DNA from: Patescibacteria group bacterium
Lineage (GTDB): Bacteria > Patescibacteriota > UBA1384 > UBA12157 > JAENIV01
Assembly: GCA_041666185.1 (NCBI GenBank)
Contig: JBAYHL010000001.1
Location: forward strand, 153,619-217,618
Reading direction: 5' to 3'
Length of the DNA stretch: 64,000 nucleotides
The position numbers were made by a program, and so were the translations under genes. Positions 6,118 to 41,887 of the stretch are shown in pieces. The notes under the pieces were generated by a model. It did not search any database, was not told the origin of the DNA, and was given only the letters and a program-made list of their open reading frames with translations. The first letter of the stretch is position 1. Every line of letters begins with the position of its first letter.

Positions 6118-8685
6118 TTATTTCCCATGACATTTTTTATACTTTTTACCACTTCCACAAGGACAAGGATCGTTACGACCAACGTGTGGATAAGAAGATG
6201 ATGATTGTTGACTCCCTGAACCACTAGATTTTGTCCTAACTGTTACCTCAACTCCTTTATTATTTGATGATTGTGGAGCTGTTTGCTGTTCAATTGCTGG
6301 CACGCTTTGTGTCACCATAGGCTTTACTACATTTTCAAAAGTTCCGGCTGCCATTGTTTCATCTGCTCCGTGCATTTGTAAATTACGCATTGGCTCAGCA
6401 GTTATTTTTTGAACAGGGGCGGGTTGGATTTCTGCTTTAAGCAGAATTTCCACTACCTGAGAATTAATAGTTCCTAAAAGTCTTTGATATAAATGGTACG
6501 CCTCAGCTTTATATTCCACCAACGGATCGCGTTGACCATAACCACGAAGACCTATTCCTTCACGAAGTAAATCCATAGCATTTAAATGCTCGATCCACAT
6601 TGTATCAATGCTTCGCAAATAAACCATTCTTTCAATTTGACTCATGATCCGTTCGCCATGTTTGTTATATTTTTCTTGATATTTCGCCTTCGTTTCATCG
6701 TCCATTAAATTTACAACTTCATCATGGACATTTTTACCTTCCAAAATACTACGACGCAGGCCGTAAATTGCCTGACGATGTTTGTTAGCAACATCATCGT
6801 ATTCAACTAAATGTTTTCGAATATCAAAGTTATGACCTTCAACTTTTTTCTGAGCTGATTCAATTGAACGAGAAATCAAACCATGTTCAATTGGCATGTC
6901 GTCAGGTAAATTGATTCTGTCCATTACGGCTTTCATTCTTTCGCCACCAAAAACTCGCATCAAATCGTCTTCCATTGAAACGTAGAACTGTGAAGAACCT
7001 GAATCACCTTGACGACCAGCACGTCCACGAAGCTGATTGTCAATTCGACGAGCCTCATGTCTCTCAGTGCCCAAAACATGCAAACCACCAGCTTCAACAA
7101 CTTTTTTGTATTCTTTTTCATCAAATGGTGTGCCACCCAAAATAATGTCTACCCCACGACCAGCCATGTTTGTTGACACCGTTACTGCCCCAAAACGTCC
7201 TGCTTGAGCAATTATTTTTGCTTCTCTTTCGTGATGCTTAGCGTTTAAAACTTCGTGTTTGGTTCCTACACGTTTAAGCATTTTTGAAAGTTTTTCCGAT
7301 TTTTCAATAGAAATCGTTCCCACTAACACTGGTTGACCTTTTTTTGAACGCTCCTCAATATCGTGACAAACAGCCAAAAATTTAGCTTCTTCGCTTTTAT
7401 AAATCTGATCTTGCTGATCTTTACGAATCATTGGTTTGTTGGTCGGAACAATAACAACATCGAGTTTATAAATTTTGAAAAACTCTTCGGCTTCCGTTTC
7501 GGCTGTACCCGTCATGCCAGCTAATTTGCTGTAAAGACGAAATAAATTTTGAAAAGAAATTGTTGCTAGAGTGTCTGATTCACGTTGAATTTCTACACTT
7601 TCTTTAGCTTCAATTGCTTGATGTAGCCCTTCAGAATAACGACGACCAGGCATTAAACGTCCTGTAAATTCATCAACAATTATAACTTCGCCATCTTTAA
7701 CAACATAATCTTTATCTTTTTTGTATAAAGCATGGGCAATTAAAGCTTCTTCCAAATGATGAACTAATTGAATAGATTTAGCGTCATAAACATTTTCTAA
7801 GCCCAACATTTTCTCAACTCTTTTCATGCCTTCGTCAGTTAGAGTGACAGCTCTCATTTTTTCATCGATTGTAAAATCTTGAACTTCTTTTAGTTGCGGT
7901 ACAAGTAGAGCAAATTTTTTATAGAGCGCACCCGATTCTTCTGCTGGTGCGGAAATGATTAAAGGAGTGCGAGCCTCATCAATTAAAATTGAGTCGACTT
8001 CATCAACAATCGCAAAATTTAATTCTCTTTGTGCCATCTGCTCTAAACTTTGGACCATGTTATCACGTAAGTAGTCAAAACCAAATTCGTTATTAGTCCC
8101 ATAAGTAATATCTGCCGCGTAAGCCTCCTTACGAGAAACTGGTTGCAAATTAGCATATTCAATTGAAACCGGATCGACATCACGCTTGTGCGGAGTAAAA
8201 ATAAAAGACGCCTCGTGATTAATAACGGCTGTTGTTATACCTAATTTATCGCAAATTGAACCCATCCAAGCAGCGTCTCTTCGCGCCAAATAGTCGTTAA
8301 CCGTAATTAAATGAGCGCCTTTACCTTCAAGAGCATTTAAATATAGCGGAAAAACGGCTGTTAAGGTTTTTCCTTCACCAGTTTTCATTTCAGCAATTTT
8401 TCCTTGATGAAGAACAACCCCACCGATCAATTGAGTATCAAAGGCTCGTTGGTTAATTGTCCGTTTAGCGGCTTCTCTTACTACCGCAAACGCTTCCGGC
8501 AAAATATCATCTAAAGTTTCTTCTTTTACTAAACGCTGTCTAAACTCTTGAGTTTTGTTTTTAAGTTCCGTGTCGGTTAGTTTTTGTAAATCTTCCTCAA
8601 ATCCATTAATTTTTTCAATTATAGGCTTAAGCTTTTCAACCTCTCCCTCATTTGAACCAAACATTTTATTTAAAAATCCTAGCAT
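6118..8685 (-). CDS. secA: Preprotein translocase ATPase SecA
   Basis: Full-length match, including the DEAD motor and the C-terminal zinc finger ([14 protein letters not shown]). Confidence 0.97.
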
Positions 8686-8732
8686 TTATGTGCCTTTCTT
8701 GATTAGATTATATCAGTTTTAAGAGTATTAGG

Positions 8733-9095
8733 CTACTCTTCCTCAGTATTTAGTTCTTTTTCAAGCCAATATTTATTAGGAAAACGAGAACCGATCTTAA
8801 CTTGTTCTTTGTATTTTAAGATTTGATGTTCTAAACGCTCTTGGGCTAGATCAACTGAACCCATAAAATCTGACGATCGCTCACAAATAAAAATAGGGTT
8901 TTTGAGTCCTGGTAGAGAAAGGGTAATTTTAACAACTTTATCAATACCACCCTTAAGACCATTTTCATCTTCGAAAACCACTTCACACTTTGCTGGTTCT
9001 TGAACTAATGGCTCGTATTTTTTAACTTTCTCAATTACATAAGATTTAAGCTCAGAAGGAATTTTGATTTTTTGACCCCTAACAATAATTTTCAT
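8733..9095 (-). CDS. hpf: Ribosome hibernation promoting factor / RaiA family
   Basis: Size and the MKI.I.G..I.I...L..YV..K..K pattern of the short HPF family. Confidence 0.7.
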   Translation of the reverse strand: MKIIVRGQKIKIPSELKSYVIEKVKKYEPLVQEPAKCEVVFEDENGLKGGIDKVVKITLSLPGLKNPIFICERSSDFMGSVDLAQERLEHQILKYKEQVKIGSRFPNKYWLEKELNTEEE

Positions 9096-10315
9096 TATAC
9101 CTCTTTTGTATTTGTTATTTTGTCAAAGCCACAATATTTTTGTAAAGCTTCTGGAATCTTAATCGAACCATCTTCTTGCTGATTATTTTCCAAAATTGCA
9201 ATTAACATTCGGCCAATTGCCACTGCTGTACCATTTAGAGTATGAGCAAATTCAGTTTTATCACCATCTTTATATTTAATTTTTAATCTTCGTGCTTGAA
9301 AATCGGTACAGTTGCTTGAAGAATGAGTTTCCCTAAAACATTCTTGACCCGGCATCCAAATTTCGACGTCAACGGTTTTTGATGATGGAAGCCCCAAATC
9401 ACCAGAACAAACTTCTACTAACCTATAAGGTAAATTTAATCCAGAAACAATTTTCTCCTCTAAAGAAATAATTAATTCATGTTCTTTCTTGGAATCTTCT
9501 TTCTTACAAAAAGAAAACATTTCTAATTTATCAAATTGATGAGCCCGCAAGATTCCTTTAACATCTTTGCCATAACTACCAGCCTCACGTCTTAAACAAG
9601 TCGAAAAACCAACAAATCTTTGTGGTAATTTTTGAATAACTTCTCCAGCAAAATAAGGTAGAATTGATTGTTCGGAAGTACCAATTACAACTAAAGAATC
9701 GTCTTTTGTATGATAAGCATCGTCATTGATAGCTTCGAAATGACCCGAACCCCACGCCATTTCCTCACGAATTAAAACTGGTGGAATGATTGGCTGAAAA
9801 CCTTCTTGCTTTACAACGTCTAAAACATATTTTATTAAAGCAAACTCGAGTTCAACGGCTTGATTTTTAAGATAATAAAAACGATTACCAGAGACTTTAA
9901 CCGCTCTTTCAACATCAATAATATCCAAAGCCTTGCCAAGCTCAAAATGATCTTTGCCAGTCTTTAGCTTTATCTCGCCCACTTCTTTTATAACTTTATT
10001 GTCATTTTCATCTTTTCCTTCTGGAACGTCATCTTGCGAAATATTTGGTAATTTAACAGCTTCAAGTTTAAAATTTTCTTCCACTTCTTGCAATTGCGGT
10101 TCCAAATCTTTAATCATCTGCTTTATTTCAATTGCCCGGTCATTTTTCCCAGTTAATTTATTTTGTTCGGACCGCAATGTTTCGATTCTTTTTAAAACAT
10201 CTTTTCTTTCTTCGTCGAGGGCTAGTAATTTTCCCAAATCAAATTCACCTTTTCTTTTCGCCAAGGCATTTTTTACTTCTTCCAAATTTTCTCTTACATA
10301 TTTTATATCAAGCAT
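9095..10315 (-). CDS. serS: Seryl-tRNA synthetase
   Basis: N-terminal coiled coil (MLDIKYVRENLEEV...) plus a class II core. The start at M20 of the track ORF gives the canonical N-terminus. Confidence 0.93.
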   Translation of the reverse strand: MLDIKYVRENLEEVKNALAKRKGEFDLGKLLALDEERKDVLKRIETLRSEQNKLTGKNDRAIEIKQMIKDLEPQLQEVEENFKLEAVKLPNISQDDVPEGKDENDNKVIKEVGEIKLKTGKDHFELGKALDIIDVERAVKVSGNRFYYLKNQAVELEFALIKYVLDVVKQEGFQPIIPPVLIREEMAWGSGHFEAINDDAYHTKDDSLVVIGTSEQSILPYFAGEVIQKLPQRFVGFSTCLRREAGSYGKDVKGILRAHQFDKLEMFSFCKKEDSKKEHELIISLEEKIVSGLNLPYRLVEVCSGDLGLPSSKTVDVEIWMPGQECFRETHSSSNCTDFQARRLKIKYKDGDKTEFAHTLNGTAVAIGRMLIAILENNQQEDGSIKIPEALQKYCGFDKITNTKEV

Positions 10316-10370: not shown

Positions 10371-10405
10371 AATTTAAAAAATAGGCCCGGGATTTGACCC
10401 GAGCC
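10371..10405 (-). terminator. Rho-independent terminator at the 3' end of the duplicated cassette
   Basis: Minus-strand transcript forms GGCUCGGG-ucaaau-CCCGGGCC (8 bp stem with one GU pair), followed by UAUUUUUU. Confidence 0.6.
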
Positions 10406-10424
10406 TAGAATTATTAGTTACTAT

Positions 10425-10730
10425 TTACCTCACATAGGAAAACCTGAACCACCAATAACGTATCTTGGTTAGCGTATCGGTTGGTAAGGGCTCATATATT
10501 TTGTCTATCTGGTCAGCTACCCTGACCAATTCTTCTTCGCTAAAAGTTTGCTTGATTATCTTTCTTCTCTCGCAATCAGAAATTGTTCCTAAACCTCTTA
10601 TTGGCCACCCAGAAACCAACGAGGGTGCCCTTTTATCAACCTTTAATTCGCGACACAGTTTTTTTGCAATCATAATACCTTGATAAAAAGTAAGTGAACT
10701 AAGCAGTCTATAGCCATAGATCGGTTTCAT
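10425..10730 (-). CDS. Hypothetical protein, cassette gene B2 (101 aa, MKPIY...KQTFSEEELVRV...)
   Basis: Paralog of the 11036-11335 product. Its ATG directly abuts the TAG stop of the upstream 84 aa gene. Confidence 0.65.
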   Translation of the reverse strand: MKPIYGYRLLSSLTFYQGIMIAKKLCRELKVDKRAPSLVSGWPIRGLGTISDCERRKIIKQTFSEEELVRVADQIDKIYEPLPTDTLTKIRYWWFRFSYVR

Positions 10731-10985
10731 CTACTTACCTTCTACCAAAAAGGTCAAATCTTCTGCCAAGCTTTCTTTTTGTTCAGGACAAAGAGAACCA
10801 ACTGATATTTCTCTGCCTTGCAAGGAAGCCTCAAATTGACAATGCTTAGTGATTGCAGCAATAACATCAATACCTTTTTTAACCTTCTTCTGCCATTCTT
10901 CAGGAGAAACAACCGGAACTTCTATCTCCTCGGTCGTTCTTTCTTCAACTGTATCCAAAGCCTTCTGTTCCTTAACTGCTTCCAT
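10731..10985 (-). CDS. Hypothetical small protein, cassette gene A2 (84 aa)
   Basis: Paralog of the 11337-11528 product, with conserved H..FE..LQG...S....C..QKESL...L.....GK. Preceded by an AAGGGAGG Shine-Dalgarno sequence. Confidence 0.65.
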   Translation of the reverse strand: MEAVKEQKALDTVEERTTEEIEVPVVSPEEWQKKVKKGIDVIAAITKHCQFEASLQGREISVGSLCPEQKESLAEDLTFLVEGK

Positions 10986-11035
10986 TTAGGTTACCTCCCT
11001 TTTTGCTGTTCATGTTTGCCCAAGTTGTCAAACTG

Positions 11036-11335
11036 CTAACAATTAAGAAGAAACTTCTTAACCCGATAGTTTAGTTTTGCAAAAAAACCTTTTGTTGGCA
11101 CAGGTTTATACATCTCCTGCATCAGATCAACGGCTCTGACAAGCTCCTCTTCCGAAAAAGTTTTCTTAATTAAATCTTCCATTTCTAAGCCATAAGGCGA
11201 AGCATGTACCATGAAAGCTAAGGGCAAAAATCTTTGTTCAACTGATAATTCGTTATACACTCGCTGAGCAGCCGAACATCCATAAATCATAATTGAGTCA
11301 GCAAGTAACCTGTTATTCGAATAAATCGGTTTCAT
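11036..11335 (-). CDS. Hypothetical protein, cassette gene B1 (99 aa, MKPIY...KKTFSEEELVRA...)
   Basis: A GGGAGG Shine-Dalgarno sequence is embedded in the end of the upstream gene. The ATG is 1 nt after the upstream TGA. Confidence 0.65.
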   Translation of the reverse strand: MKPIYSNNRLLADSIMIYGCSAAQRVYNELSVEQRFLPLAFMVHASPYGLEMEDLIKKTFSEEELVRAVDLMQEMYKPVPTKGFFAKLNYRVKKFLLNC

Positions 11336-11336
11336 C

Positions 11337-11528
11337 TCACTTACCTCCCATCACATAATCAAGATCGCTCACTAAACTCTCTTTTTGATCCAAACAAAAA
11401 GTTTTTACACTTAAAGTTTTGCCTTGAAGTTTACTTTCAAATCGAATGTGCTGGGCTATAGTCGCAATTATCTGAACCCCTAACTCAACCTTACGCTGCC
11501 GTTCTTCCCGTGAATCAACCTGTTGCAA
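11337..11528 (-). CDS. Hypothetical small protein, cassette gene A1 (63 aa)
   Basis: TTG start preceded by a strong GAGGAGG Shine-Dalgarno sequence. Paralogous to A2. Confidence 0.6.
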   Translation of the reverse strand: MQQVDSREERQRKVELGVQIIATIAQHIRFESKLQGKTLSVKTFCLDQKESLVSDLDYVMGGK

Positions 11529-11594
11529 TTTACTCCACCTCCTCAGGTTTTCTTGATTACCGTCATTATTTTAAAATAATACTCCAAAACAATT

Positions 11595-11625
11595 AAAAAA
11601 TCAAGCCCGAAAGCCTGATTTTTAC
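11595..11625. terminator. Bidirectional hairpin terminator between lysK and the cassette
   Basis: AAAAAATCAAGC-ccgaaa-GCCTGATTTTT. An A-run and a T-run flank an ~11 bp stem. Confidence 0.55.
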
Positions 11626-11648
11626 ACTTTTTTAGTAAATATGAAGAA

Positions 11649-13232
11649 TTATTCTTGAGCCTCTTCCAATCTTTCTAAAACAAACTCTTTGTCTAAACTT
11701 GCCAAAAGCCAGCCAGCTTGAGGACCAGAGTCTTTTCCTAAAAACGTTAAATATATACTAGAAAATGCATCACGAGGAACAATTTTCATTTCGTTTTTTA
11801 TATTATGGATTTCTTTATGCAAATCTTCACCAGAAAAGCCTTTTGTTTTTATAGCACCAAAGATTTTTTTCAAAAATTCCTTTTGCTGAGCAGATATTTT
11901 CTTCGCTTCTTCTGGCAACTTTTCTTGAATTGTGAATTTATAATTTTCAGGAGCGAATTTTTCCAGCCATCTTTTAGCAACAATTATTCTATTTTCAATT
12001 TCTTGTTTCTCAACTTCGGTTAACGCTTCGCCTTTTTCAAGTTTTGCATATTCAAAAACATCAACTCTGGGCATTTGAAGCATATAAGCAATCTTTGAAA
12101 ATCGAAGTAAATATTTTGGTTGACCTGCCCTGAGCATAGTCGAAGGGTCTTTCTTTTGATCAATTTCCGTATAGTGAGACGCTCGACTTAAATCTAATTT
12201 TGGATCTTCGGTTAGTGCCATCTGAGCTCTGTCAAATTCATCATAAAGTAACGGGATTGTCTCACCTTCAGGTTGAAAATCAATTGCTCGCTTAAAACGA
12301 GTGCGAACAAATAAAAATCTTAAAATATTACCTGGCAAGAAATCTGCCATATCTTTAGCTGTCACTCCCAAACCTTTCGAGGAAGACATTTTTGCCCCAC
12401 CGATTAAAATGTGTTCGTAACGGATATCGTAAGGAGGAGTTTTTTTGAAAATTTCACGATAAATTTTATCTGCAATATCACGAGAGCCACCAGCAGCAAA
12501 ATGGTCTTTGCCTTCACCTTCAATATCAGTTTTTGTAACATGCCATTTCGAAGGCCATTCCACCTTCCACGGTAATTTACCATTGCCATCAAAAGGAGAA
12601 ATTTTACCTTTATGCCCACAACCCTTAGCCCAAGAAACTAAATTTTCCTCACACGTAAACTCAACTTCTTTTCCATCCCAACCGGTTACTTTAGTAGTAC
12701 CAATCTTGCCGCACTTAGGGCAAATTACTTGAAAAGGATACCAATCATCACCTTTATTTGAACCGGAAATTTCAAGATAAATTTTTCTAATTTCTGTTGC
12801 GCTATCTAAAATAATTTTAATTGAATCGTTAAATACCCCTTCTTTGTAAAGTTTGGAGGTAAAAACTATTTTTGGTTTAATGCCAAGATAACTTAAAACC
12901 TCTTCAAATTCATCCCCATATTGCTTAGCAAAAGTTTCATGAATACCGTCAGGTGCAGGAATATTACACAAGGGTTTACCCATATATTGTAACCAACTTT
13001 CATCTAAATAGCTTGGTAAGCCGTCCATTGGATCAAAATCATCAAAACCCCATTGAAATTCAGCAATTTTACCATTTTCGACTAAGCCTCGTCTTACTAA
13101 ATCGTGAACAATTACTCCACGAAGAGAACCCACATGAGCGTGGCCAGAGGTTGTCATCCAATCCGTTACCAGATAAGAATCTTTTGGAATTTTTTTAATA
13201 ATATCTTCGACTATTTCATCTACCCAAAACAT
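11649..13232 (-). CDS. lysK: Lysyl-tRNA synthetase, class I (archaeal-type LysRS)
   Basis: HIGH-type motif (TSGHAHVGSLRG), KMSKS variant (KMSSSKG), and zinc-binding cysteines (CPKCGK). Confidence 0.85.
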   Translation of the reverse strand: MFWVDEIVEDIIKKIPKDSYLVTDWMTTSGHAHVGSLRGVIVHDLVRRGLVENGKIAEFQWGFDDFDPMDGLPSYLDESWLQYMGKPLCNIPAPDGIHETFAKQYGDEFEEVLSYLGIKPKIVFTSKLYKEGVFNDSIKIILDSATEIRKIYLEISGSNKGDDWYPFQVICPKCGKIGTTKVTGWDGKEVEFTCEENLVSWAKGCGHKGKISPFDGNGKLPWKVEWPSKWHVTKTDIEGEGKDHFAAGGSRDIADKIYREIFKKTPPYDIRYEHILIGGAKMSSSKGLGVTAKDMADFLPGNILRFLFVRTRFKRAIDFQPEGETIPLLYDEFDRAQMALTEDPKLDLSRASHYTEIDQKKDPSTMLRAGQPKYLLRFSKIAYMLQMPRVDVFEYAKLEKGEALTEVEKQEIENRIIVAKRWLEKFAPENYKFTIQEKLPEEAKKISAQQKEFLKKIFGAIKTKGFSGEDLHKEIHNIKNEMKIVPRDAFSSIYLTFLGKDSGPQAGWLLASLDKEFVLERLEEAQE

Positions 13233-25806: not shown

Positions 25807-25894
25807 TGGTGCCCGAGGCGAGAGTCGAACTCGCATGAAGTTTTACCCTCAATGGATTTTAAGTCCATCGTGTCTACCATTCCACCACCCGGGC
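25807..25894 (-). tRNA. tRNA-Leu (anticodon UAA), type II with long variable arm, CCA encoded
   Basis: Hand-folded: acceptor GCCCGGG/CUCGGGC, anticodon stem AUGGA/UCCAU, loop CUUAAAA. Confidence 0.85.
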
Positions 25895-25936
25895 ATATTT
25901 TAATTTTACCTCAAAACTGATTTTATCTCAAGATGT

Positions 25937-26899
25937 TTACTTCAAAATAATCTCCCACTGTGTATCATGTAATTTTAACTCGGCTTCGATTGTAAACCCA
26001 GCGGCTTTTTTATGGCCTCCGCCGCCAAAAAGTTTAGCAATTTTTCCAATATCTACATTATCTTTTTCAGTACGAAGTGAGGCTCGAATATTTCCTTCTG
26101 GTGTTTCAAAAAATAAAATCGCCGCTTTTGAATCGGGAATCGAATTCATCAAATTAACTACACCGGCTAAATCATAATAAGTTGCGCCGCAATCATCTAA
26201 ATCTTGATGGGTAATAACTGAGGAAACAATTTCTAAATCTTGATTTTTGTGAAGTCTGGAAAGTGTAACACCCCAAAGCCTCAAAGCAGCAATACTTTTA
26301 TTAAGAGCAACATTCTTAGTGATTGTTTTCAATTTTGCTCCATAAGACAAAAGTTCACCAGCAATTTCCAAAGTTTTTGGGCTAGTATTTGAATGCTTGA
26401 AACCACCTGTATCAGTATAAATTCCTGTCAAAATTGCCGTAGCAATATCACGATTGATTTTAATTGGTAATTGTTTGAGCAACCCCCAAACAATCTCGGA
26501 AGCCGAAGAAGCACTCTGGTCAACAATATTAATATTCGCAATCTTCCATAAATCATTTTTTGGATGATGATCAATATTAATAAAATTTTTAAAAGTTTGG
26601 GCAAACTTTTTTAAACGCTCTGGAAAACCAGTTCGTCTTAAATCACCACAATCAATAACAATAATTACTTCATAATCACCAAACAAAACATCTTTTTGAA
26701 TTTTATCAATTTCCGGCAAAAATAAAAAAGGCTTCGGAACTTCATTAATACAAACCATCGAAACCTTCTTACCAAGACTCTTTAAACCCATATAACAAGC
26801 AACTGTTGCCGCAAGAGTATCACCGTCTGGTTCAACATGCACCATTAACAGAAACTTCTCAAAGTTCTTAATTTTAGAGTTAAATTTATCAATTAACAT
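25937..26899 (-). CDS. nrnA: DHH/DHHA1 phosphoesterase (NrnA-like oligoribonuclease/pAp phosphatase)
   Basis: DHH motif (IDHHPKN), a GGGH motif, and DGDT near the N-terminus. Confidence 0.8.
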   Translation of the reverse strand: MLIDKFNSKIKNFEKFLLMVHVEPDGDTLAATVACYMGLKSLGKKVSMVCINEVPKPFLFLPEIDKIQKDVLFGDYEVIIVIDCGDLRRTGFPERLKKFAQTFKNFINIDHHPKNDLWKIANINIVDQSASSASEIVWGLLKQLPIKINRDIATAILTGIYTDTGGFKHSNTSPKTLEIAGELLSYGAKLKTITKNVALNKSIAALRLWGVTLSRLHKNQDLEIVSSVITHQDLDDCGATYYDLAGVVNLMNSIPDSKAAILFFETPEGNIRASLRTEKDNVDIGKIAKLFGGGGHKKAAGFTIEAELKLHDTQWEIILK

Positions 26900-26916
26900 G
26901 ATGGAAGGGACCTAAA

Positions 26917-27393
26917 TTATGCCGAAGGATTGAGAATAATAACTTTTCTCTCTTCAGAAGGCAGGTCATTAAGAATAAATTTAAACTGATCTTGCCCCTC
27001 TGCTTTCATCCCTTCCTCTTTAGTGAAACTTTCTAAATCTTTTTCGTACATTGGAATCACTACTTTTGGATCAATTTGATTAATAACCTCCAAAGCTTGC
27101 TTTGTTTCCGTAAATTCACCACCACCAATACCAATTAACAAAACATCGATACTGTTTAGTTTTTCCAATTCACTATCAGATAAAACCTTGGCTTTCTTAA
27201 TCCAACCAACCATCATTTTTTCTGAAAAAATTTCCATCGTCCCGTCAATAACTTCCATTTGCACCCCCCCAGCTTCATATTCGCCAGGGGTAGTAATTTC
27301 AAGATCACCTAACAAAATCTCTTGACCAATTTTAACAATTTTATTTCTAGTTTTAATAACAAAGTTATCTTTGCCTTGCCAGCTAATTATCAT
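26917..27393 (-). CDS. MBL-fold-like protein lacking the His metal-binding motif
   Basis: Resembles UPF0173-type beta-lactamase-fold hydrolases (MIISWQG...), but has no HxHxDH motif. Confidence 0.4.
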   Translation of the reverse strand: MIISWQGKDNFVIKTRNKIVKIGQEILLGDLEITTPGEYEAGGVQMEVIDGTMEIFSEKMMVGWIKKAKVLSDSELEKLNSIDVLLIGIGGGEFTETKQALEVINQIDPKVVIPMYEKDLESFTKEEGMKAEGQDQFKFILNDLPSEERKVIILNPSA

Positions 27394-28592
27394 TTATCTC
27401 CTTTTTTTGTTTTTGTGCTAACTGACGAACTTTTTTTAGTAGCTTTTTTAGCAGTTTTTTTTGGTTTTTCTTCTACCGCGTCTTCTTTTTTACTTTCTTT
27501 TTTTGAAACTTTTTTTTCGTCAACAGCTTTTAATGAAAGGCTTAGTTTATGCAGTTCTGGTTCAACTGACATAATTTTGAATTTATAAGACTTGCCTTCT
27601 TCAACAACTTTTCTTGGATCGGTAATTTTTTCACCCAATTCGGAAATGTGAACCAAACCATCAACTTCACCTAATTTAACAAAAGCTCCAAAAGGTGTAA
27701 TTTTAGTTACAACTGCCGAAACATTATCGCCAACCTTACAAGACGAAGCTAGTTTCAACCAAGGATCCGGTTGAAGGCGTTTGAGCGAAAGAGATAATCT
27801 ATTGTCTTCCTTAGAAATAACTTTGACAGTAATTTTTTCACCAACGTTAAACTTACTTTTCAAGTCATCAATGTGTTCCCAAGAGGCTTCCGAAATATGA
27901 ACCAAACCTTCAATCTCATCTGAATCGAAAGTAATTTTAACGAATAAACCAAAATCAACAATACCAGTTATCTCACCTTCAAAATCTTGACCAACTTCAA
28001 TACTCTTCATTTTTTCAAATTGAGCAGTATCTCCCGCGGCTTTTTCTGAAAAAATTAACTTACCAGAATTAGGTTCAAAACTTAATACTTTAACTTGCAA
28101 TGTTTGACCAACTAAAGATTTGAGGCGATTTAAAATTTCATCACGATTACCAGAAGCGACTTTAGGGTAATGAGAGGTTGCTAGTTGCGAAACCGGCAAG
28201 AAACCTTCGTAGTCACCAAATTGGCAAAGTAATCCGCCTTTATTAGCATCTAATACTTTAATTGGCAATGCTTCGCCGGACTCTAGTTTTTCATTAAGAA
28301 TTTTCGAAACTCTTTCTTTGTCGGCGCGCTTAAGTGATAAAATCACGTAGCCGTCATCATTTTCAATTGTTAAAACATAAGCGAGAATTTTGTCACCAAC
28401 CTTAAGATCACCAACTTCTGGTGAAAATTCTTGTTCTGGAATAATCCCCAAATTCAAACCACTTACATCAACAATAACTTTGTTCTTCAAAATTTGCATA
28501 ATTTTGACTTCCGTCAATTCACCATTACGAATAGGCACTAAGCTACTTCCGAGCGAGGTAGCTAAATCTTTCATACTTTCAGTTTTTTTCAT
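27390..28592 (-). CDS. rpsA: 30S ribosomal protein S1 (multi-S1 domain) with Lys-rich C-terminal tail
   Basis: Four S1-like repeats and a C-terminal KK-rich tail. Confidence 0.85.
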   Translation of the reverse strand: MKKTESMKDLATSLGSSLVPIRNGELTEVKIMQILKNKVIVDVSGLNLGIIPEQEFSPEVGDLKVGDKILAYVLTIENDDGYVILSLKRADKERVSKILNEKLESGEALPIKVLDANKGGLLCQFGDYEGFLPVSQLATSHYPKVASGNRDEILNRLKSLVGQTLQVKVLSFEPNSGKLIFSEKAAGDTAQFEKMKSIEVGQDFEGEITGIVDFGLFVKITFDSDEIEGLVHISEASWEHIDDLKSKFNVGEKITVKVISKEDNRLSLSLKRLQPDPWLKLASSCKVGDNVSAVVTKITPFGAFVKLGEVDGLVHISELGEKITDPRKVVEEGKSYKFKIMSVEPELHKLSLSLKAVDEKKVSKKESKKEDAVEEKPKKTAKKATKKSSSVSTKTKKGDK

Positions 28593-28670
28593 TTTTTCCT
28601 TTATGCCACTCCTTAAATACTTTTAATTTATAACCCTAAATTTTTCTTAGGGCAGGCCCTTCAATTATAT

Positions 28671-29084
28671 TCAGGGTAAATATTTTTCAAAATTTTTCTT
28701 TTTTTCGTATTCTTTAATTTTTTTCGGTAAAATCATAAATCGATACCAAATAATAGTTATTGCCCAAATCACCATCGCTGCCATCGATACGAAAAAGATG
28801 AACCTGCTACCAATATAAGAAATTTCTTCGTAGCGAAAAAAAAGCAAGAATAACCCTAGAAAACCAGTAAACAATGATAAATTAATAACTTTGGTGTATA
28901 AATTTTTGTAAATTTTATCTATGTTTTTAGCCTTAATAATTAAGGTAAAACCTACAAGAATAAATACAACAAAAATAATCGCTAAATATTTATACAAACC
29001 ATCTGAAGTTGGTGTTGCTTCGAAAAGATAATTCTTTTGAATTAATTTCCCAAAATCAATTTGATTAAAGAAGGCAATATTCAT
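28671..29084 (-). CDS. Hypothetical small membrane protein
   Basis: Three or four predicted TM helices. Confidence 0.45.
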   Translation of the reverse strand: MNIAFFNQIDFGKLIQKNYLFEATPTSDGLYKYLAIIFVVFILVGFTLIIKAKNIDKIYKNLYTKVINLSLFTGFLGLFLLFFRYEEISYIGSRFIFFVSMAAMVIWAITIIWYRFMILPKKIKEYEKKKNFEKYLP

Positions 29085-29125
29085 TTCGTTTGATACTCCT
29101 TAATCTAAAACTGAGTAAAACGAGG

Positions 29126-29198
29126 TGCCGGATCGCAGAATCGAACTGCGTACACGTTGATTTTCAGTCAACTGCTCTAACCAATGAGCTAATCCGGC
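29126..29198 (-). tRNA. tRNA-Phe (anticodon GAA), CCA not fully encoded
   Basis: Hand-folded: GCCGGAU acceptor, anticodon loop CUGAAAA. Confidence 0.85.
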
Positions 29199-29369
29199 TA
29201 AATTATGTTTTAAGAAATACGAAATAAGAACCAAGGTCAGACTTAAATCCTTATCTCTTATCTCATGTTTCTAATATATTTATTTTTGTTAGGAGGTTTA
29301 TATTTTTAGACAAGTTCATATTATCATAAATAAAATGATTAAGCAATAATTTCCTAGTATAATAAAGTT

Positions 29370-30407
29370 ATGAAAAAAAATTGGTTATATTTTTTAGTTT
29401 TTTTGAGTCTTGGGATTTTTATCGGAATAGAATCTTCCGTGAAACCCAGTCAAAATTCAAAAACCAACATCGCACCTACTCCCGCTATTATGCCAGCAAC
29501 AACATCTCTGACAAAAACTCAAGAAACCGAAATGACTTTTACCTTTGCTGGCGATGCTATGTTTGGTCGAGCGGTTTATAACCAATTTGGCAATGATCTC
29601 ACAAAGGCTTTTAGGAATTTAGACAAAAGTCTGTTTAATAGTGATATCAATATCTTAAATTTAGAAGGTCCAATTGTTGAAGAAAAATTTATCCCCGACA
29701 CAACACCAGATAACTTAGTTATGAAATTTCCACCATCAACTAAAGATGCCTTGGGATGGTTAAATATTAATGCCATAAGCCTTGGCAATAATCATACTTT
29801 GGACCAAGGAAACACAGCTTTAGATTTCACTAAAAAAACACTTGCCAATGCTAAAATCACATCCATTGGTGACCAACAAAATAAAAATGAAATTGTTAAA
29901 GTTTTTGAAAAAGAAGATCTTAAAATTGCTATTTTAGCTATTAATTTTTTAACAAATACACCAGACTTGGAAGAAGAAATTAAAAAACAAAAAAATGATA
30001 ATGCTTTTGTGATTATTTTTCCTCATTGGGGCAACGAATATCAATCAACTCATAACAAAACGCAGGAAAAACTTGCTCGTAATTGGATTGACGAAGGAGC
30101 CGACTTAATTATTGGTTCACACCCTCACGTCGTTCAGGATGCTGAAATTTACAAAGAAAAACCAATTTTTTATTCTCTTGGTAATTTTCTTTTTGACCAA
30201 ACTTTTTCCAAAGAAACTCAAAGAAGCCTTGTGATTAAAGGTAAAATTAAGGGTAATAAATTAACTTTAGAACTAATTCCTCTCGGAAGCTTACATCTTA
30301 GACTGTATGTTTTAGAAGATAATGAAAAAGAACAAATTATAAAAATTTTTGAAAAAACATTTAAAAATCAAATAAATAATAGTTTAATCGAACTTAATAT
30401 TAATTAG
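29370..30407 (+). CDS. CapA/PgsA family metallophosphatase (poly-gamma-glutamate capsule synthesis-like)
   Basis: TFAGDAMFGR, GNNH and YSLGNFLFDQ motifs, plus an N-terminal signal anchor. Confidence 0.8.
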   Translation: MKKNWLYFLVFLSLGIFIGIESSVKPSQNSKTNIAPTPAIMPATTSLTKTQETEMTFTFAGDAMFGRAVYNQFGNDLTKAFRNLDKSLFNSDINILNLEGPIVEEKFIPDTTPDNLVMKFPPSTKDALGWLNINAISLGNNHTLDQGNTALDFTKKTLANAKITSIGDQQNKNEIVKVFEKEDLKIAILAINFLTNTPDLEEEIKKQKNDNAFVIIFPHWGNEYQSTHNKTQEKLARNWIDEGADLIIGSHPHVVQDAEIYKEKPIFYSLGNFLFDQTFSKETQRSLVIKGKIKGNKLTLELIPLGSLHLRLYVLEDNEKEQIIKIFEKTFKNQINNSLIELNIN

Positions 30408-30954
30408 CTCTCAAAACTTTTGTTTTAATTTTTTTGATAATTAGAATGCTCAAAAATCCGTAACCGACACCAAATAAAATCCCTGCCAAGATATCGGTTG
30501 GATAGTGCATACCATTATGCATTCTAGAAAATGCCATTAAAAACAAAAATAATCCTGCAAAAATATAGACAAACCATTTTCGATAAAAATAAACGTATAA
30601 GGTTAAAAGACTGGCAGTGATTGCCATATGCCCCGAAGGAAACGAAGAGTCAACCCAAAGCTCACCAGAAGAAATAATACCATTAGGATAAGCAATATAA
30701 GGACGGTCACGAAAAATAAAGCTTGCTAAAGTCGGCTTAATCACAATATCATTTAAAACAAAATAAATAATCAGAATTAAAATTGTTCCTAAAAAAATCC
30801 ATTTACCATTTTTGCGATCCCATATTAAAGCAGTCAATGCTAATAAAAGCCAAAAAGCAATCAAAAAAGGAATCCAACTAATATAGAACGAAAAATTGTC
30901 GATAATTGTTCCTGAACCAAGATGATTAAAAAAATGGGTAATATTATAATCCAT
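30400..30954 (-). CDS. PAP2 family membrane phosphatase
   Basis: PSGH and SRMHNGMHYPTD motifs. Confidence 0.8.
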   Translation of the reverse strand: MDYNITHFFNHLGSGTIIDNFSFYISWIPFLIAFWLLLALTALIWDRKNGKWIFLGTILILIIYFVLNDIVIKPTLASFIFRDRPYIAYPNGIISSGELWVDSSFPSGHMAITASLLTLYVYFYRKWFVYIFAGLFLFLMAFSRMHNGMHYPTDILAGILFGVGYGFLSILIIKKIKTKVLRAN

Positions 30955-30996
30955 TTCGTCGTTAAAAAACTCCTCAATATAAACTTTTTAAAAAAG

Positions 30997-31068
30997 TGGG
31001 CGGTGAAGGATTCGAACCTACGACATCTTCGATGTAAACGAAGCGCTCTACCGCTGAGCTAACCGCCC
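30997..31068 (-). tRNA. tRNA-Val (anticodon UAC)
   Basis: Hand-folded: GGGCGGU acceptor, anticodon loop UUUACAU. Confidence 0.85.
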
Positions 31069-31072
31069 ATTA

Positions 31073-31156
31073 TGCCGAGAACAGGACTTGAACCTGCACG
31101 GGCTTGCGCCCACATCCACCTCAAGGATGCGCGTATACCAATTCCGCCATCTCGGC
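31073..31156 (-). tRNA. tRNA-Leu (anticodon GAG), type II
   Basis: Hand-folded: anticodon stem CAUCC/GGAUG, loop UUGAGGU, long variable arm. Confidence 0.8.
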
Positions 31157-31194
31157 TTGTACCACAATTATATGGGAAAATTCATAAAAAATCA

Positions 31195-31228
31195 ACTTAA
31201 AAAGAAAAGTCCCGGTATTATAACCGGG
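31195..31228 (-). terminator. purF terminator (copy 1 of a repeated 30 nt element)
   Basis: CCCGGT-attata-ACCGGG is a perfect 6 bp stem, followed on the minus transcript by ACUUUUCUUUUU. Confidence 0.65.
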
Positions 31229-31250
31229 ACGTAAAAGTTAGTTCAAGCGA

Positions 31251-32705
31251 TTATCCGATGGTTTCTAAGACACACCTACCTTGTTCCTGAGGAATTTCAA
31301 ATGGATATTCCCCTGTAAAACAGGCAGGACAAAAATGTTCGTCCGGAATAGCTTCTAGATATTTCTCTTTATTAATTGCCGAGATTACTCCTGGAAGCGA
31401 GAGATAACCTAAAGAATCAGCGCCAATTTCTTGAGCTATTTCTTCAATAGATTTGTGAGAAGCAATCAACTCAGAACTATATTGGGTATCAATCCCCATA
31501 AGACATCTGTGCCTATATGGCGGAGAAGTAATTCTCACGTGAACCTCTAAAGCCCCTGCTTCTCTTATCAGCCTAACTGTTTGCTTAGTCGTTGTCCCTC
31601 GAACAATTGAATCTTCCAAAACAACAACTTTTTTCTTAAGCACCTCTCTGGGAAGAACTTGAAGTTTAGCCCGAACACCAATTGTTCGCAAATGTTGATC
31701 TGGTTGGATAAAAGTCCGACCAACATAGCGGTTCTTAATAAAAACATCTCTGACTTCTAAACCAGATGCTTCCGCATAACCTTTAGCTGCTGGTGTACCA
31801 GTATCTGGCACGCCACCAACCACCCAATCATGAGGATTACCGATCTCTACTGGATGTTCACGAAAAAGTTCTTCTCCCATGTGTCTACGAGCAGTTTGCA
31901 ACAAACGATCATACAAAATACTGCCAGGACTAGCAAAGTAGATAAACTCGAAAATACAAAGTCTTTTAGAAATCTTGGGCAAAAGTTGGGAAACTTGATA
32001 TTTACCATTACTGAAAGTTACTATTTCGCCTGGTTGCAAATCAAAATCCCACTGCGCTCCCAAGGCATCTAAAGCACATGTTTCAGAGGCCAAAATAAAT
32101 TGGCCACCACCATTTAGAATACCCACACTCAAAGGTCTAATTCCCCAAGGATCACGAATGCCAATTAAGTTTCTACCAACAACAATCACTAATGAATAAG
32201 CCCCAACTATTTCACTTAAAGCTTTTTTGATAGCTTCTTGAAAGGTTGCTGACTTACGAGAATAATATGAAACTAAAAGAGCAATTAGCTCACTGTCAGA
32301 CGTCCCACGAGGAGTAATACCTAAACTTGAAAGTTTGCTTTTAAGACTCAAAGGATCAAGCAAATTACCATTGTGGGCTAAAGCGAATTCACCAAATTTA
32401 CTGTTAACTTTGATGGGCTGAAAATTTTGCTTAGTATTTCCACCGGTATTAGAATATCTTGTGTGACCAATGGCCACGAAAGCTGAGTGATCTCTGTCGC
32501 CAGTCAGCCGCCAAAGTTGATTTTCAGTAAACCGATCAACTCGACCTGCCTGACGTTCAAGTCTTATCTGTTTGCCACAAGAAGTAGCAATCCCTGCCGA
32601 TTCTTGGCCTCTGTGCTGTAAAGCCAAAATGCCAAAGTAAGTCAAACGAGCGACATTTTCGCCCGGTGCATGGATCCCAAAAACTCCGCACGACTCTTGA
32701 GGCAT
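31251..32705 (-). CDS. purF: Amidophosphoribosyltransferase PurF (propeptide-containing, Fe-S type)
   Basis: MPQES-CGVFG propeptide followed by the catalytic Cys. PRTase motif. C-terminal CPACFTGEYP cluster cysteines. Confidence 0.9.
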   Translation of the reverse strand: MPQESCGVFGIHAPGENVARLTYFGILALQHRGQESAGIATSCGKQIRLERQAGRVDRFTENQLWRLTGDRDHSAFVAIGHTRYSNTGGNTKQNFQPIKVNSKFGEFALAHNGNLLDPLSLKSKLSSLGITPRGTSDSELIALLVSYYSRKSATFQEAIKKALSEIVGAYSLVIVVGRNLIGIRDPWGIRPLSVGILNGGGQFILASETCALDALGAQWDFDLQPGEIVTFSNGKYQVSQLLPKISKRLCIFEFIYFASPGSILYDRLLQTARRHMGEELFREHPVEIGNPHDWVVGGVPDTGTPAAKGYAEASGLEVRDVFIKNRYVGRTFIQPDQHLRTIGVRAKLQVLPREVLKKKVVVLEDSIVRGTTTKQTVRLIREAGALEVHVRITSPPYRHRCLMGIDTQYSSELIASHKSIEEIAQEIGADSLGYLSLPGVISAINKEKYLEAIPDEHFCPACFTGEYPFEIPQEQGRCVLETIG

Positions 32706-32807
32706 GTCCTCTTCCTCCTTGAGATAAATTAAAAAAGGCGCCCTTTGACTAAAGTCTTAGGTGCTCCCTTGCTTAAAATACCACAAAAAACACAAATGTC
32801 AATGGCG

Positions 32808-32842
32808 CAAATATTTTAAAAGCCCCGGCATAATACCAGGGC
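32808..32842 (-). terminator. Terminator after the Cys-rich gene (copy 2 of the repeated element)
   Basis: The minus transcript forms CCCUGG-uauuau-CCGGGG (with a GU pair) followed by CUUUUAAAAUAU. It is 25/30 nt identical to the purF terminator element. Confidence 0.5.
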
Positions 32843-32855
32843 GTAAAAGTTAAAG

Positions 32856-33512
32856 TTACCACGAATGTGTTTTGCAAACATGATCAACAGCGATATCAAG
32901 CATAGTTGGTGTATATTGAGAAACTTCTAAAATTGATTTTCTTACATCTTTTGAAAGAGCCTGAAAAGCCTTTCTGGCATCAATAAAACGAGTTGATCTA
33001 ATGCAGCTAACAGAACGTGACATATTTTCAGGGTAAGCTAATCCGCAAAAACAATCTGACCACCTCTTAGCAAAAGTACTTTCGCAGTAAGATCTATCTG
33101 GTGGACAATAATGTCTAGAGGGAAACAAGTCTCTTAACATAGCTAGTAAAAAAGATCTATTAAGTTTTGTTGTCTTAAAATTTTCTAAAACACTTTCAGA
33201 AAGGACTTCCCAAACAAAACATTCTAAGTTACCACCCCAATCATAATGTTCTGGACGAACAGGAATTATGTATTTTCCGCTCAAAGACGCAATAATACTA
33301 CCAGCCATAACAAAGGCTGCCCATTCACTAAGCGTTGGACATTGACGATTGCTAATCCCGTAGCAAACAAGAGACTGCTCGCAATTATAATCAAAGTCCC
33401 AATTATTATGCCTTTGGTCAAAAGTGACCGATTCTTCAAGCCAGTCCGGTAATGGCTCACGCTTAAGTTTATCGGGCAACATAAAAAAATCCAATTTGGC
33501 AAAGCTACCCAT
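32856..33512 (-). CDS. Hypothetical cysteine-rich protein (about 218 aa from MGSFAKLDFF)
   Basis: ORF with 13 Cys, ~40% GC, and no recognisable family. The track ORF extends to 33584. Confidence 0.5.
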   Translation of the reverse strand: MGSFAKLDFFMLPDKLKREPLPDWLEESVTFDQRHNNWDFDYNCEQSLVCYGISNRQCPTLSEWAAFVMAGSIIASLSGKYIIPVRPEHYDWGGNLECFVWEVLSESVLENFKTTKLNRSFLLAMLRDLFPSRHYCPPDRSYCESTFAKRWSDCFCGLAYPENMSRSVSCIRSTRFIDARKAFQALSKDVRKSILEVSQYTPTMLDIAVDHVCKTHSW

Positions 33513-33618
33513 TACTGTCCTCCTAACCATTTTTAAAATGTACAAAAAAATCAAGTTATAAACCTGACTTCTTTCTGTGACCAAATTATATTAAATTTTA
33601 ATAATTAGCAAGAACAAA

Positions 33619-33704
33619 TGGTGGGCGGAAGAGGAGTCGAACCTCCATGATCTTGCGATCACTGACTCCTGAAGCCAGCGCGTCTACCATTCCGCCATCC
33701 GCCC
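33619..33704 (-). tRNA. tRNA-Leu (anticodon CAG), type II, CCA encoded
   Basis: Hand-folded: GGGCGGA acceptor, anticodon stem CUGGC/GUCAG, loop UUCAGGA. Confidence 0.8.
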
Positions 33705-33715
33705 AAATTATGTTA

Positions 33716-35098: not shown

Positions 35099-35116
35099 AA
35101 TGAGTGCTTAATTAAA

Positions 35117-35332
35117 TTAAACCAGAAGATTAACAATAGCCATAATTACAAAAAGAAGGGCTAATGTAATTGTTAGGTAAAACAAAAATTTTTCAATACC
35201 TCGTCTGGAACGATAAACTTCTCCAGCACCACCAAAAGCTCCGCCTAAAGACGTACCACGATGCTGTAAAAGAATAGAGACAATCAGCAAAACTGCTAGG
35301 ACGATTTGAATAATTAAAAGTGTTTTTTGCAT
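35117..35332 (-). CDS. secG: Preprotein translocase subunit SecG
   Basis: LLQHRGTSLGGAFGG motif and two TM helices. Confidence 0.8.
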   Translation of the reverse strand: MQKTLLIIQIVLAVLLIVSILLQHRGTSLGGAFGGAGEVYRSRRGIEKFLFYLTITLALLFVIMAIVNLLV

Positions 35333-35377
35333 ATTTTTTTCTCTTTACGTTTTAGCTAATTACTTAGCCAAAACTAA

Positions 35378-35452
35378 TGGAGGCCTGGGCGAGATTTGCA
35401 CTCGCGCATATCGGTTTTGCAGACCGATGCCTTACTGCTTGGCTACCAGGCC
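35378..35452 (-). tRNA. tRNA-Cys (anticodon GCA), U73 discriminator, CCA encoded
   Basis: Hand-folded: GGCCUGG acceptor, anticodon stem UCGGU/ACCGA, loop CUGCAAA. Confidence 0.7.
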
Positions 35453-35526
35453 ACCTCATTTTGCTCGGTGTAAACTTTTACTTAATACAAGTTAAAGTTT
35501 AAAAACTTGCACCGAATGAAATAAGG

Positions 35527-35601
35527 TGGAGCGGGAGACGGGAATTGAACCCGCTGCCTTCTCCTTGGCAAGGAGACGTTCTACCGATGAACTACTCCCG
35601 C
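35527..35601 (-). tRNA. tRNA-Gly (anticodon GCC), CCA encoded
   Basis: Hand-folded: GCGGGAG acceptor, anticodon stem UCUCC/GGAGA, loop UUGCCAA. Confidence 0.85.
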
Positions 35602-35715
35602 AAAACTTACTTAATAATACCAAAGAAGAATCCTCTTGTAAAGGCGATATTCCTTAAGTATAATGACCTTAAGAAAAAAAGTTTATATTTTATATTGAGG
35701 AGCGTTAGTAATTAA

Positions 35716-37562: not shown

Positions 37563-37614
37563 AAATTAGTCCTTTTATTTATCATATCATAAAAAATTTA
37601 TCTACCCAGAATCT

Positions 37615-40982: not shown

Positions 40983-41007
40983 ATTTATATAATATTTTAT
41001 ATTAAAA

Positions 41008-41886: not shown

Positions 41887-41887
41887 T

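Follow-up and report, generated by a model that had tools for sequence, protein, structure and literature searches.

Between the aminoacyl-tRNA synthetase genes lysK and serS of a Patescibacteria group bacterium (contig JBAYHL010000001.1 of assembly GCA_041666185.1) lies a cassette of four small genes, which is a horizontally transferred bicistronic small-protein operon, new and uncharacterised. The stretch of DNA analysed, termed the window, is 64 000 nt in length, and the cassette is found at positions 10371–11640 on its minus strand. The upstream gene of each pair is called A and the downstream gene B; the B proteins of the Patescibacteria are referred to as candidate phyla radiation B (CPR-B) where they are compared with the A-linked partner proteins of other bacteria.

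The best explanation blends an evolutionary and a mechanistic part, and as a whole it is given a probability of roughly 0.55. The evolutionary part is highly probable: the pair entered the ancestor of one Patescibacteria clade a single time, from a family native to the Armatimonadota, and was later duplicated. The mechanistic part is tentative. It reads the products, from their sequence properties, as a possible non-enzymatic 1:1 adaptor or regulator pair, with an acidic hairpin protein (A) and a basic helical protein (B).

Two tandem gene pairs

Four open reading frames (ORFs) on the minus strand form two paralogous pairs, as the first-pass annotation of the window, made by a model from the sequence alone, had described. 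A1 (11337–11528) starts with TTG and encodes 63 amino acids (aa), a family-A two-helix hairpin from which the ancestral acidic N-terminal extension of ~25 aa is gone. B1 (11036–11335; 99 aa, isoelectric point (pI) 8.6) is predicted to be all-helical, with MKPIY at the N-terminus, a central TFSEEELVR and an aromatic/basic C-terminus. A2 (10731–10985; 84 aa, pI 4.7) has the full ancestral extension, with the sequence EVPVVSPEEW, and is predicted to fold as a helical hairpin, while B2 (10425–10730; 101 aa) is basic, with a pI of 9.7. Over 60 aa, A1 and A2 share 48% of their residues (E = 2e-20); for B1 and B2 the identity is 36% by BLASTP (E = 6e-15) and 41% in an 80-aa local alignment. The A and B motifs quoted earlier are present in the alignments. 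No further copies of A or B occur within the 64-kb window.

The two genes of each pair are tightly apposed. The TGA of A1 is followed after 1 nt by the ATG of B1, and the TAG of A2 abuts the ATG of B2 (0 nt). The last codons of A1, for Met-Gly-Gly, make up the GGGAGG that precedes B1, so that the spacing of 0–1 nt and the overlap of a Shine-Dalgarno sequence with the terminal Gly-Gly codons of A1 were both read correctly in the earlier annotation. At the corresponding A–B junctions of related genomes there is a 4-nt overlap (locus L028) or a 2-nt gap (L030). A fusion of A2 and B2 by read-through of the TAG was considered, since the two are in frame; it was rejected, as the frame relation differs in the other pairs (+1, –4 and +2 nt).

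A probable single insertion into the synthetase gene junction

A single A–B pair is present at the same lysK/serS site in three relatives, L028 (GCA_023485405.1), L030 and L034. These share the gene order csrA, mreB, mreC, PBP2, greA, lysK, A, B, serS, hpf, secA, and their LysK and SerS proteins are 77–85% identical to those of the window. In all five Patescibacteria pairs, A precedes B on the same strand.

The next-closest relatives, retrieved by a scan with the window SerS, served as outgroups and have empty sites. L035 (SerS 76%, LysK 71% identical) has no cassette, and there the stop codon of lysK and the start of serS overlap by 4 nt (at ~4001); L036 (SerS 68%, LysK 66%) likewise has none, and the overlap is 8 nt (952–959). 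In the more distant L094, lysK and serS are ~50 nt apart, without A or B. A concatenated SerS and LysK alignment splits the four cassette-bearing from the three empty-site genomes with 97.3% bootstrap support, and 100% of bootstraps unite the Patescibacteria A copies in one clade. Given the empty outgroup sites, the carrier clade and the monophyly of the A copies, a single insertion into an ancestral, overlapping lysK–serS junction accounts for the distribution. The insertion split a synthetase gene pair that was probably translationally coupled. In the carriers, serS lies downstream of the cassette terminator and has its own conserved promoter-like region.

The cassette thus resembles genomic islands in its compositional anomaly, its clean empty site in outgroups and its self-contained transcription signals. 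It differs from them in size, being 1.1–1.2 kb (~0.7 kb in the single-pair relatives), and in being old and fixed in the clade. No integrase or transposase ORF, no tRNA gene and no flanking direct repeats were found at the insertion site.

Two observations on the relatives may be added. In L034 (958–1250; Logan SRR22387889), B is split by a 1-nt deletion between TFSDEE and LVRVAD, while A, lysK and serS are intact; apart from the deletion this B is 93–98% identical at the protein level to that of L030. Either B has become a pseudogene very recently in L034 or the frameshift is an artefact of assembly. Also, synonymous divergence between L030 and L034 is uneven along the locus: 0.17–0.19 for B, 0.30 for the 3′ end of lysK, 0.38 for A and 0.74 for serS. 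This may reflect recombination between lineages, or differing mutational or selective regimes.

Composition and age of the insert

The first-pass annotation gave the block 40–45% guanine plus cytosine (GC) against a background of ~33%. The value for the block was overstated. The GC content of 10371–11640 is 38.0% and that of the ORF span 38.9%, and the window averages 34.4% (z = 1.76; 95th percentile among windows of equal size). Taken by itself, total GC is a marginal signal in the window. The clearer signal is GC at third codon positions (GC3), which is indeed raised: the four ORFs have values of 0.32–0.39, compared with 0.22–0.24 in the flanks and 0.22–0.28 over the set of lysK, serS, hpf, secA, greA and PBP2 genes. 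The anomaly is shared and larger in L028, L030 and L034, with GC3 of 0.40–0.53 in the cassette and 0.22–0.31 in the flanking genes. Individual values are GC 0.536 and GC3 0.529 for L028 A, GC 0.456 and GC3 0.472 for L028 B, and GC 0.498 and GC3 0.526 for L030 A. The cassette GC is drifting toward that of the host, and the window lineage shows the furthest amelioration.

The picture is different in the Armatimonadota, where the GC of A and its partner tracks the host (A 0.42–0.57 in loci of 0.49–0.59). Family A is native and strongly constrained in the Armatimonadota and foreign in the Patescibacteria; its native status is based on the host-like GC, the conservation of the core and the housekeeping neighbours found there.

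The empty sites, the carrier clade and the shared GC3 anomaly bear out the earlier proposal of an autonomous foreign insert that was later duplicated. Its proposed recency is a different matter. A recently acquired and recently duplicated orphan island would have GC3 above that of its flanks and would form a terminator-bounded, autonomous block, as is seen here. Yet the cassette occupies this site also in genomes that share only 77–85% LysK and SerS identity with the window, and the terminators, the Shine-Dalgarno sequence and the serS promoter are conserved among the three relatives and the window. The duplicates have diverged to 48% (A) and ~36–41% (B) identity, are no closer to each other than to the L028 orthologues, and are saturated at synonymous sites; A has ~180 homologous clusters; and flanking direct repeats and an integrase are lacking. 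Recent acquisition is accordingly very improbable. Orthologous cassettes in syntenic positions and with uniform GC had been named as what would speak against it. Synteny was found and the GC is not uniform, so the foreign origin stands and the recency falls. The cassette is foreign yet old, and has been vertically inherited since its entry.

Duplication and selection

Divergence between the copies (A1/A2 48%, B1/B2 41% identity) is close to the distance of either from the L028 orthologues (47–51%); LysK and SerS of the window and L028 are 80–85% identical, LysK alone 85%. Synonymous divergence (dS) between the duplicates is saturated. As the duplicates are as divergent mutually as from the L028 orthologues, the duplication is old. 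It took place either in the window lineage, followed by fast divergence, or before the split, with one copy lost in the L028 group. In a rooted A tree the three possible orders of the A1, A2 and L028-group split receive 59%, 27% and 14% support.

The A2 extension EVPVVSPEEW can be compared with EFPLPVAEDW of the Armatimonadota proteins. A1 has kept the ancestral Shine-Dalgarno sequence, has lost ~25 residues after the duplication and starts at TTG.

The ratio of nonsynonymous to synonymous divergence (dN/dS) is 0.25–0.35 for A and 0.04–0.29 for B, with 0.08–0.15 for the flanking genes, and in the Patescibacteria A and B evolve 3–4 times faster than their neighbours. By these rates, A and B are genuine genes, and the purifying selection that acts on them is relaxed. 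The contrary reading, that the ORFs are decaying remnants of an insertion or chance ORFs, could draw on the TTG start of A1, which appears in JGI gene calls only, on the frameshift in L034 B and on the lack of family annotations. It is hard to sustain, as the four ORFs are intact and each has a Shine-Dalgarno sequence, dN/dS is well under 1 in every comparison, the invariant residues persist in three contexts at the level of phyla, and the A model is confident.

Family A in the Armatimonadota and on a phage-like contig

A profile built from A1 and A2 detects ~80 homologues of 74–100 aa, with E values of 4e-10 to 4e-6, and more diverse seeds extend the family to 178 clusters, mostly from metagenome-assembled genomes of Armatimonadota. 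All are annotated as 'hypothetical protein' and have no Pfam domain. The claim that the cassette encodes orphan proteins therefore does not hold for A, with its ~180 homologous clusters; it stands for CPR-type B, which has two further clusters at 50% identity.

The family core reads H-x2-F-E-x2-L-Q-G-x8-L-C-x-E-Q-K-x-S-L-x2-D-L, and a looser form is found across members, H-x2-[FY]-E-x2-L-Q-G ... C-x-[EV]-Q-[KQR] ... L-x2-D-[LM]. Seven residues (H48, E52, Q56, C66, Q69, L73 and D76 in A2 numbering) are invariant among the Patescibacteria, phage-like and Armatimonadota proteins, and A1 retains all seven. The AlphaFold model of A2 has a mean predicted local distance difference test (pLDDT) score of 82.5, with ~95–97 in the core, and consists of a disordered acidic N-terminus and helices at 28–56 and 67–82. 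The hairpin tip (45–77) is conserved on all faces, and helical-wheel analysis places H48, E52 and Q56 on or beside the hydrophobic face. Conservation all round the modelled tip suggests that this segment would be packed inside a complex and not exposed on a monomer. A metal site formed by H48, E52, C66 and D76 is speculation drawn from the helical wheel. Fold searches gave generic helical matches only.

In the Armatimonadota, A is regularly paired. A same-strand basic gene of 101–157 aa follows A within tens of bases in 23/23 non-Patescibacteria loci, among them the phage-like contig described below. There is one pair per fetched locus, and no Armatimonadota contig matched twice. The A core is 78–87% identical where orthologues of the neighbouring genes are only 46–67% identical, and synteny of the pair is kept across neighbours with 46–53% identity. 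These neighbours encode an RNase J-like hydrolase, a DinG-like helicase, a ROK kinase, MetRS, CbiMQ, MurJ and a rhomboid protease.

The cassette can be compared directly with representative Armatimonadota pairs (ABFD54_01095/P0008, M1133_04305/P0004 and ACOX3G_02525/P0111; partners of 101–136 aa). The A proteins are homologous (E 1e-10 to 1e-19 to the window profile), A is directly followed by a basic helical partner, and four colinear blocks of the partner can be lined up with CPR-B, although homology between these two is not statistically significant. The Armatimonadota pair has host GC, is conserved and is single per fetched locus; the window cassette, in contrast, is duplicated and fast-evolving, with foreign GC3. 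As every member is annotated as hypothetical, the comparison gives no clue to function.

A and a partner gene are also found on a putative jumbo-phage contig of 212 668 bp (IMGVR_UViG_3300037067_019009; L031, 4920–5670). L032 (4857–5583) is the same element. The surrounding genes, all on one strand, are small unknown ORFs and genes for a PHROG-4786 protein, an HGTP_anticodon-domain protein and TROVE/Ro60. The partner encoded here, of 157 aa, has two strongly hydrophobic C-terminal segments of transmembrane type. A larger role can be imagined, in which a membrane-acting two-protein system of the Armatimonadota was captured separately by a jumbo phage and by episymbiotic Patescibacteria as a host-interaction or takeover module, with the His/Glu/Cys/Asp/Gln tip of A binding a metal or ligand. 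We consider this improbable. If true, it would amount to a new small-protein system and a possible host-to-symbiont or phage-mediated route of transfer.

Two side observations concern the neighbours. L004 is the sole Armatimonadota locus with a mobile- or defence-like neighbour: a HEPN/nucleotidyltransferase pair and a Bro-N gene lie 2–3.5 kb downstream of the A–partner pair (8136–9880). Synthetase-related genes adjoin the pair in three unrelated contexts, with MetRS directly upstream in the Armatimonadota locus L020 (1555–3474), LysRS/SerRS in the Patescibacteria and a gene for an anticodon-binding-domain protein (684–1346) in L031. The adjacency is probably coincidence, as it is found in 1/22 Armatimonadota loci.

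The B proteins and their counterparts

B is much the rarer protein. In a word-indexed search, B1 alone matches itself only. When 1.84 billion representatives, each standing for a cluster at 50% identity, were searched exhaustively by HMMER with a B1+B2 profile, P0083 and P0085 were the only other true relatives recovered. Another match, P0084, is a protein of 1455 aa with ~17 near-identical repeats of ~72 aa (...LGEISDLSEKEIIHQVKRLNPALNP...), which give 17 matches to positions 34–62 of the B profile; it was rejected as a chance match amplified by the repeats. No B homologue was found by pattern scan in IMG/VR or JGI metagenome contigs.

Conserved in CPR-B are MK-x-I-Y at the N-terminus, a helix with EE-x-x-VR in the centre and an amphipathic, aromatic/basic C-terminus, such as FLKRVSSWWNRVVSFF in L028. 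B and its partner counterparts are always basic, with a pI of 8.6–10.4. A joint alignment of CPR-B with the Armatimonadota partner shows four colinear blocks. These are an N-terminal MK-x-[ILM]-[YF]; a basic helix that ends in V-[ED]-x-R; [FL]-[SP]-E-E-x2-V-R; and a C-terminal aromatic amphipathic G-F-x2-R-[LV]-x2-W. CPR-B is distinguished by an insertion of 27 aa and lacks the Gly-rich linker and the hydrophobic tail of the Armatimonadota partner. The two are probably positional orthologues, since the pair would have moved as one unit.

Transcription and translation signals

Hairpin terminators had been reported on both sides of the cassette, and both were found. The intrinsic terminator of lysK (11596–11623, minus strand), detected by terminator scan and RNA folding, has a 12-bp stem, a tetraloop and a T-run; its energy is –13.7 kcal/mol (z = –5.2), and 0/200 shuffles were as good. 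It is conserved in L028, L030 and L034. The T-run overlaps the –35-like TTGATT of a candidate cassette promoter (11576–11604, minus strand), in which TTGATT and TATTAT are 17 nt apart; 9/12 positions match the consensus in the scan. TTGATT and an A/T-rich –10 region are kept in the orthologous intergenic regions. No inverted repeat besides the terminator is present between lysK and A1, i.e. there is no operator-like palindrome.

A Shine-Dalgarno sequence read from the DNA, GAGGAGGTGGAG (11533–11544, minus strand), precedes the TTG start of A1. At the A Shine-Dalgarno position, AAGGAGGTG is unchanged in 4/4 cassette-bearing genomes. The B1–A2 spacer (10986–11035, minus strand) is 50 nt in length and contains the Shine-Dalgarno sequence of A2, AAGGGAGGT. 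It has no hairpin (fold z = +0.46), and no promoter or terminator was scored in it by the scan. Because the spacer appears unstructured, a single four-gene transcript (A1-B1-A2-B2) is plausible and is the simplest reading of the sequence.

The intrinsic terminator of B2 (10382–10407, minus strand) has a 10-bp stem with seven G–C pairs and a T6 tail, and lies just upstream of the serS promoter region. Its energy is –19.2 kcal/mol (z = –5.4), and again 0/200 shuffles were as good. A homologous hairpin, GGGCTCGGG...CCGGGCCC, is conserved in L028, L030 and L034. The serS promoter and Shine-Dalgarno sequence align across the four cassette-bearing genomes. No Rfam match, riboswitch or leader was found in the cassette.

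Possible functions of the pair

Tight translational coupling would produce A and B in fixed proportion, and the two may work together in a 1:1 complex. In such a complex, the hairpin tip of A would bind to the N-terminal helices of B, which are conserved, and the amphipathic C-terminal helix of B would place the complex at the membrane or another surface. In the phage-borne version, true transmembrane segments would take the place of the amphipathic helix. A stoichiometric complex is suggested by obligate adjacency, coupling, complementary charge and the all-round conservation of the tip. A is mostly acidic, with a pI of 4.5–5.4.

In the first-pass annotation, the coupled gene arrangement and the duplication were likened to toxin–antitoxin, immunity or effector–chaperone modules. 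None of the searches of Pfam, NCBIfam, PHROGs, PADLOC and PDB sequences or by fold lends support to this likeness. Pfam, NCBIfam, PHROGs and PADLOC gave nothing significant for the four window proteins or for the Armatimonadota, phage-like and other Patescibacteria versions. Sequence profiles of A, CPR-B and the partner against the PDB gave chance-level matches only (E of at least 0.03), to ING3, eL31, Im9, an RNA polymerase beta subunit and the E3 Z-alpha domain. In the literature, nothing relevant was found on the A and B motifs or on gene transfer between Patescibacteria and Armatimonadota.

A toxin–antitoxin, addiction or abortive-infection pair is nonetheless the most probable of the rival readings. 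Basic B would inhibit growth, perhaps at the membrane by way of its amphipathic C-terminus, and acidic A would neutralise it by direct binding. As in type II systems, the genes are small, coupled and co-directional, with an acidic product upstream and a basic one downstream, and have their own promoter and terminator; they were acquired horizontally, are tandemly duplicated and evolve faster than their neighbours in the Patescibacteria. In addition, one copy is on the 212-kb phage-like contig, B is frameshifted in L034 with A intact, and the L004 pair has the HEPN/nucleotidyltransferase pair and Bro-N gene nearby.

On the other hand, no version of either protein matches a toxin, antitoxin or defence model, there is no kinship in sequence or fold to known families, A has no DNA-binding domain or fold, and the promoter has no operator-like palindrome. 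Type II systems are patchy, mobile and often present in multiple copies; the Armatimonadota pair is stable, syntenic, single per fetched locus, more conserved than its neighbours and set among housekeeping genes, the exceptions being the phage-like contig and the transfer and duplication in the Patescibacteria. Neither A nor B was found in GenBank phages or PLSDB plasmids. As for the frameshift, dN/dS for B is 0.04–0.18 in the genome pair that includes the frameshifted copy, and with such strong purifying selection on B the L034 deletion may be an assembly error. A toxin–antitoxin function is thus unlikely. The adaptor or regulator pair is preferred because of the conserved, syntenic Armatimonadota arrangement among housekeeping genes and the lack of toxin, antitoxin, operator or DNA-binding features.

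Structural analogues of a short hairpin protein with a partner include the WXG100/ESAT-6–CFP-10 pairs, the YscE/PscE-type secretion co-chaperones and the four-helix-bundle dimer of Rop. A is similar to such proteins in that it is a short hairpin encoded beside a presumed binding partner, with a Gly-ending motif at the turn. It differs in the lack of a sequence match, in its shorter helices and in fold scores at the level of non-specific hairpins. With respect to WXG100/ESAT-6, there is no Pfam match up to E 10 (PF06013), the motif is L-Q-G and not W-x-G, and the core is ~55 aa rather than ~100 aa. No type VII secretion genes, such as one for an FtsK/SpoIIIE-type ATPase, are present within ~10 kb on either side of the cassette, and no other secretion genes are close by.

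These analogues raise the question of whether A and B could be a chaperone–substrate, effector–immunity or exported hairpin pair, similar to WXG100/ESAT-6 proteins, secretion co-chaperones or bacteriocin immunity proteins and relevant to episymbiosis. The conserved L-Q-G at the turn of the A helix-turn-helix hairpin and the adjacent, coupled genes might be so interpreted, as might the end of Patescibacteria A, D-L-x-x-V-x-G-G, which is double-glycine-like, and a very weak match of CPR-B to the colicin E9 immunity protein (E ~1). These resemblances are superficial, and the terminal Gly-Gly is explained by the overlapping Shine-Dalgarno sequence of B. We regard such a function as quite improbable. 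A double-glycine leader, as in class II bacteriocins, and a Pup/UBact-like C-terminus were likewise rejected, as the Gly-Gly is specific to the Patescibacteria, is 0–3 residues from the stop codon, with no core peptide after it, and coincides with the B Shine-Dalgarno sequence. No exporter gene, of the C39-peptidase ABC type or other, was found among the lysK/serS neighbours (~10 kb on each side).

Several points weigh against the proposed transfer of an adaptor or regulator pair. A1 (pI 7.9) and the L030 A protein (pI 8.6) are not acidic. The B model is poor, with a pLDDT of 59.8. Alignment of CPR-B with the Armatimonadota partner by hhalign gives a probability of 1.2%, with 19 columns aligned, and shuffle-calibrated hidden Markov model (HMM) comparisons are marginal: searches of the partners with the CPR-B profile give p ~0–0.06 for most members, and the reverse comparison is non-significant. 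Association with the membrane is suggested by the character of the B sequence, and CPR-B has no transmembrane segment. The donor would be the Armatimonadota judging from GC and distribution, and a phage vector is equally possible. Lastly, transfer, duplication, fast evolution, the copy on the phage-like contig and the frameshift in L034 B also fit a selfish module.

Flanking genes and annotation

Upstream of the cassette, lysK (11649–13232, minus strand) encodes a class I lysyl-tRNA synthetase; the Pfam domain tRNA-synt_1f was found on the identical gene in L001. Downstream is serS (9095–10315, minus strand), with Pfam domains on the identical gene of the source contig. The true start of serS is the ATG at 10315, as MLDIKY is conserved and an AAGGAG-type Shine-Dalgarno sequence is present in relatives. 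A start at the TTG at 10372, given by a mechanical ORF listing, was rejected since the ORF would cross the cassette terminator. Within ~10 kb on each side of the lysK/serS site are csrA, mreBCD, PBP2, greA, hpf, secA, peptidase and NUDIX genes.

Public databases probably annotate the cassette incompletely or inconsistently. Within the protein collection, A1 is found only in JGI gene calls (P0003). A2 and B1 have the NCBI locus tags WCV58_00955 and WCV58_00960, respectively. For B2, the 50%-identity library has P0082, a call of 82 aa that is truncated at the N-terminus. Elsewhere in the window, eight tRNA genes (four Leu, Phe, Val, Cys and Gly) are present at 25807–44661, all on the minus strand and over ~19 kb; they have no relation to the cassette.

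Concluding remarks

The cassette represents a transfer across phyla into a reduced Patescibacteria genome, and what appeared to be an orphan is now a defined family pair. The insertion separated two overlapping aminoacyl-tRNA synthetase genes, and serS gained its own promoter-like region. Pairs of hypothetical genes are often conserved, and none of the findings suggests biology of a new kind. Streamlined Patescibacteria keep few accessory genes, and a pair that was retained and once duplicated is probably useful there; purifying selection in every known member of the clade and the duplication in one of them make a useful role probable. Together with conservation in the Armatimonadota and the copy on a jumbo-phage-like contig, this makes the pair a reasonable candidate for the characterisation of a new small-protein complex.

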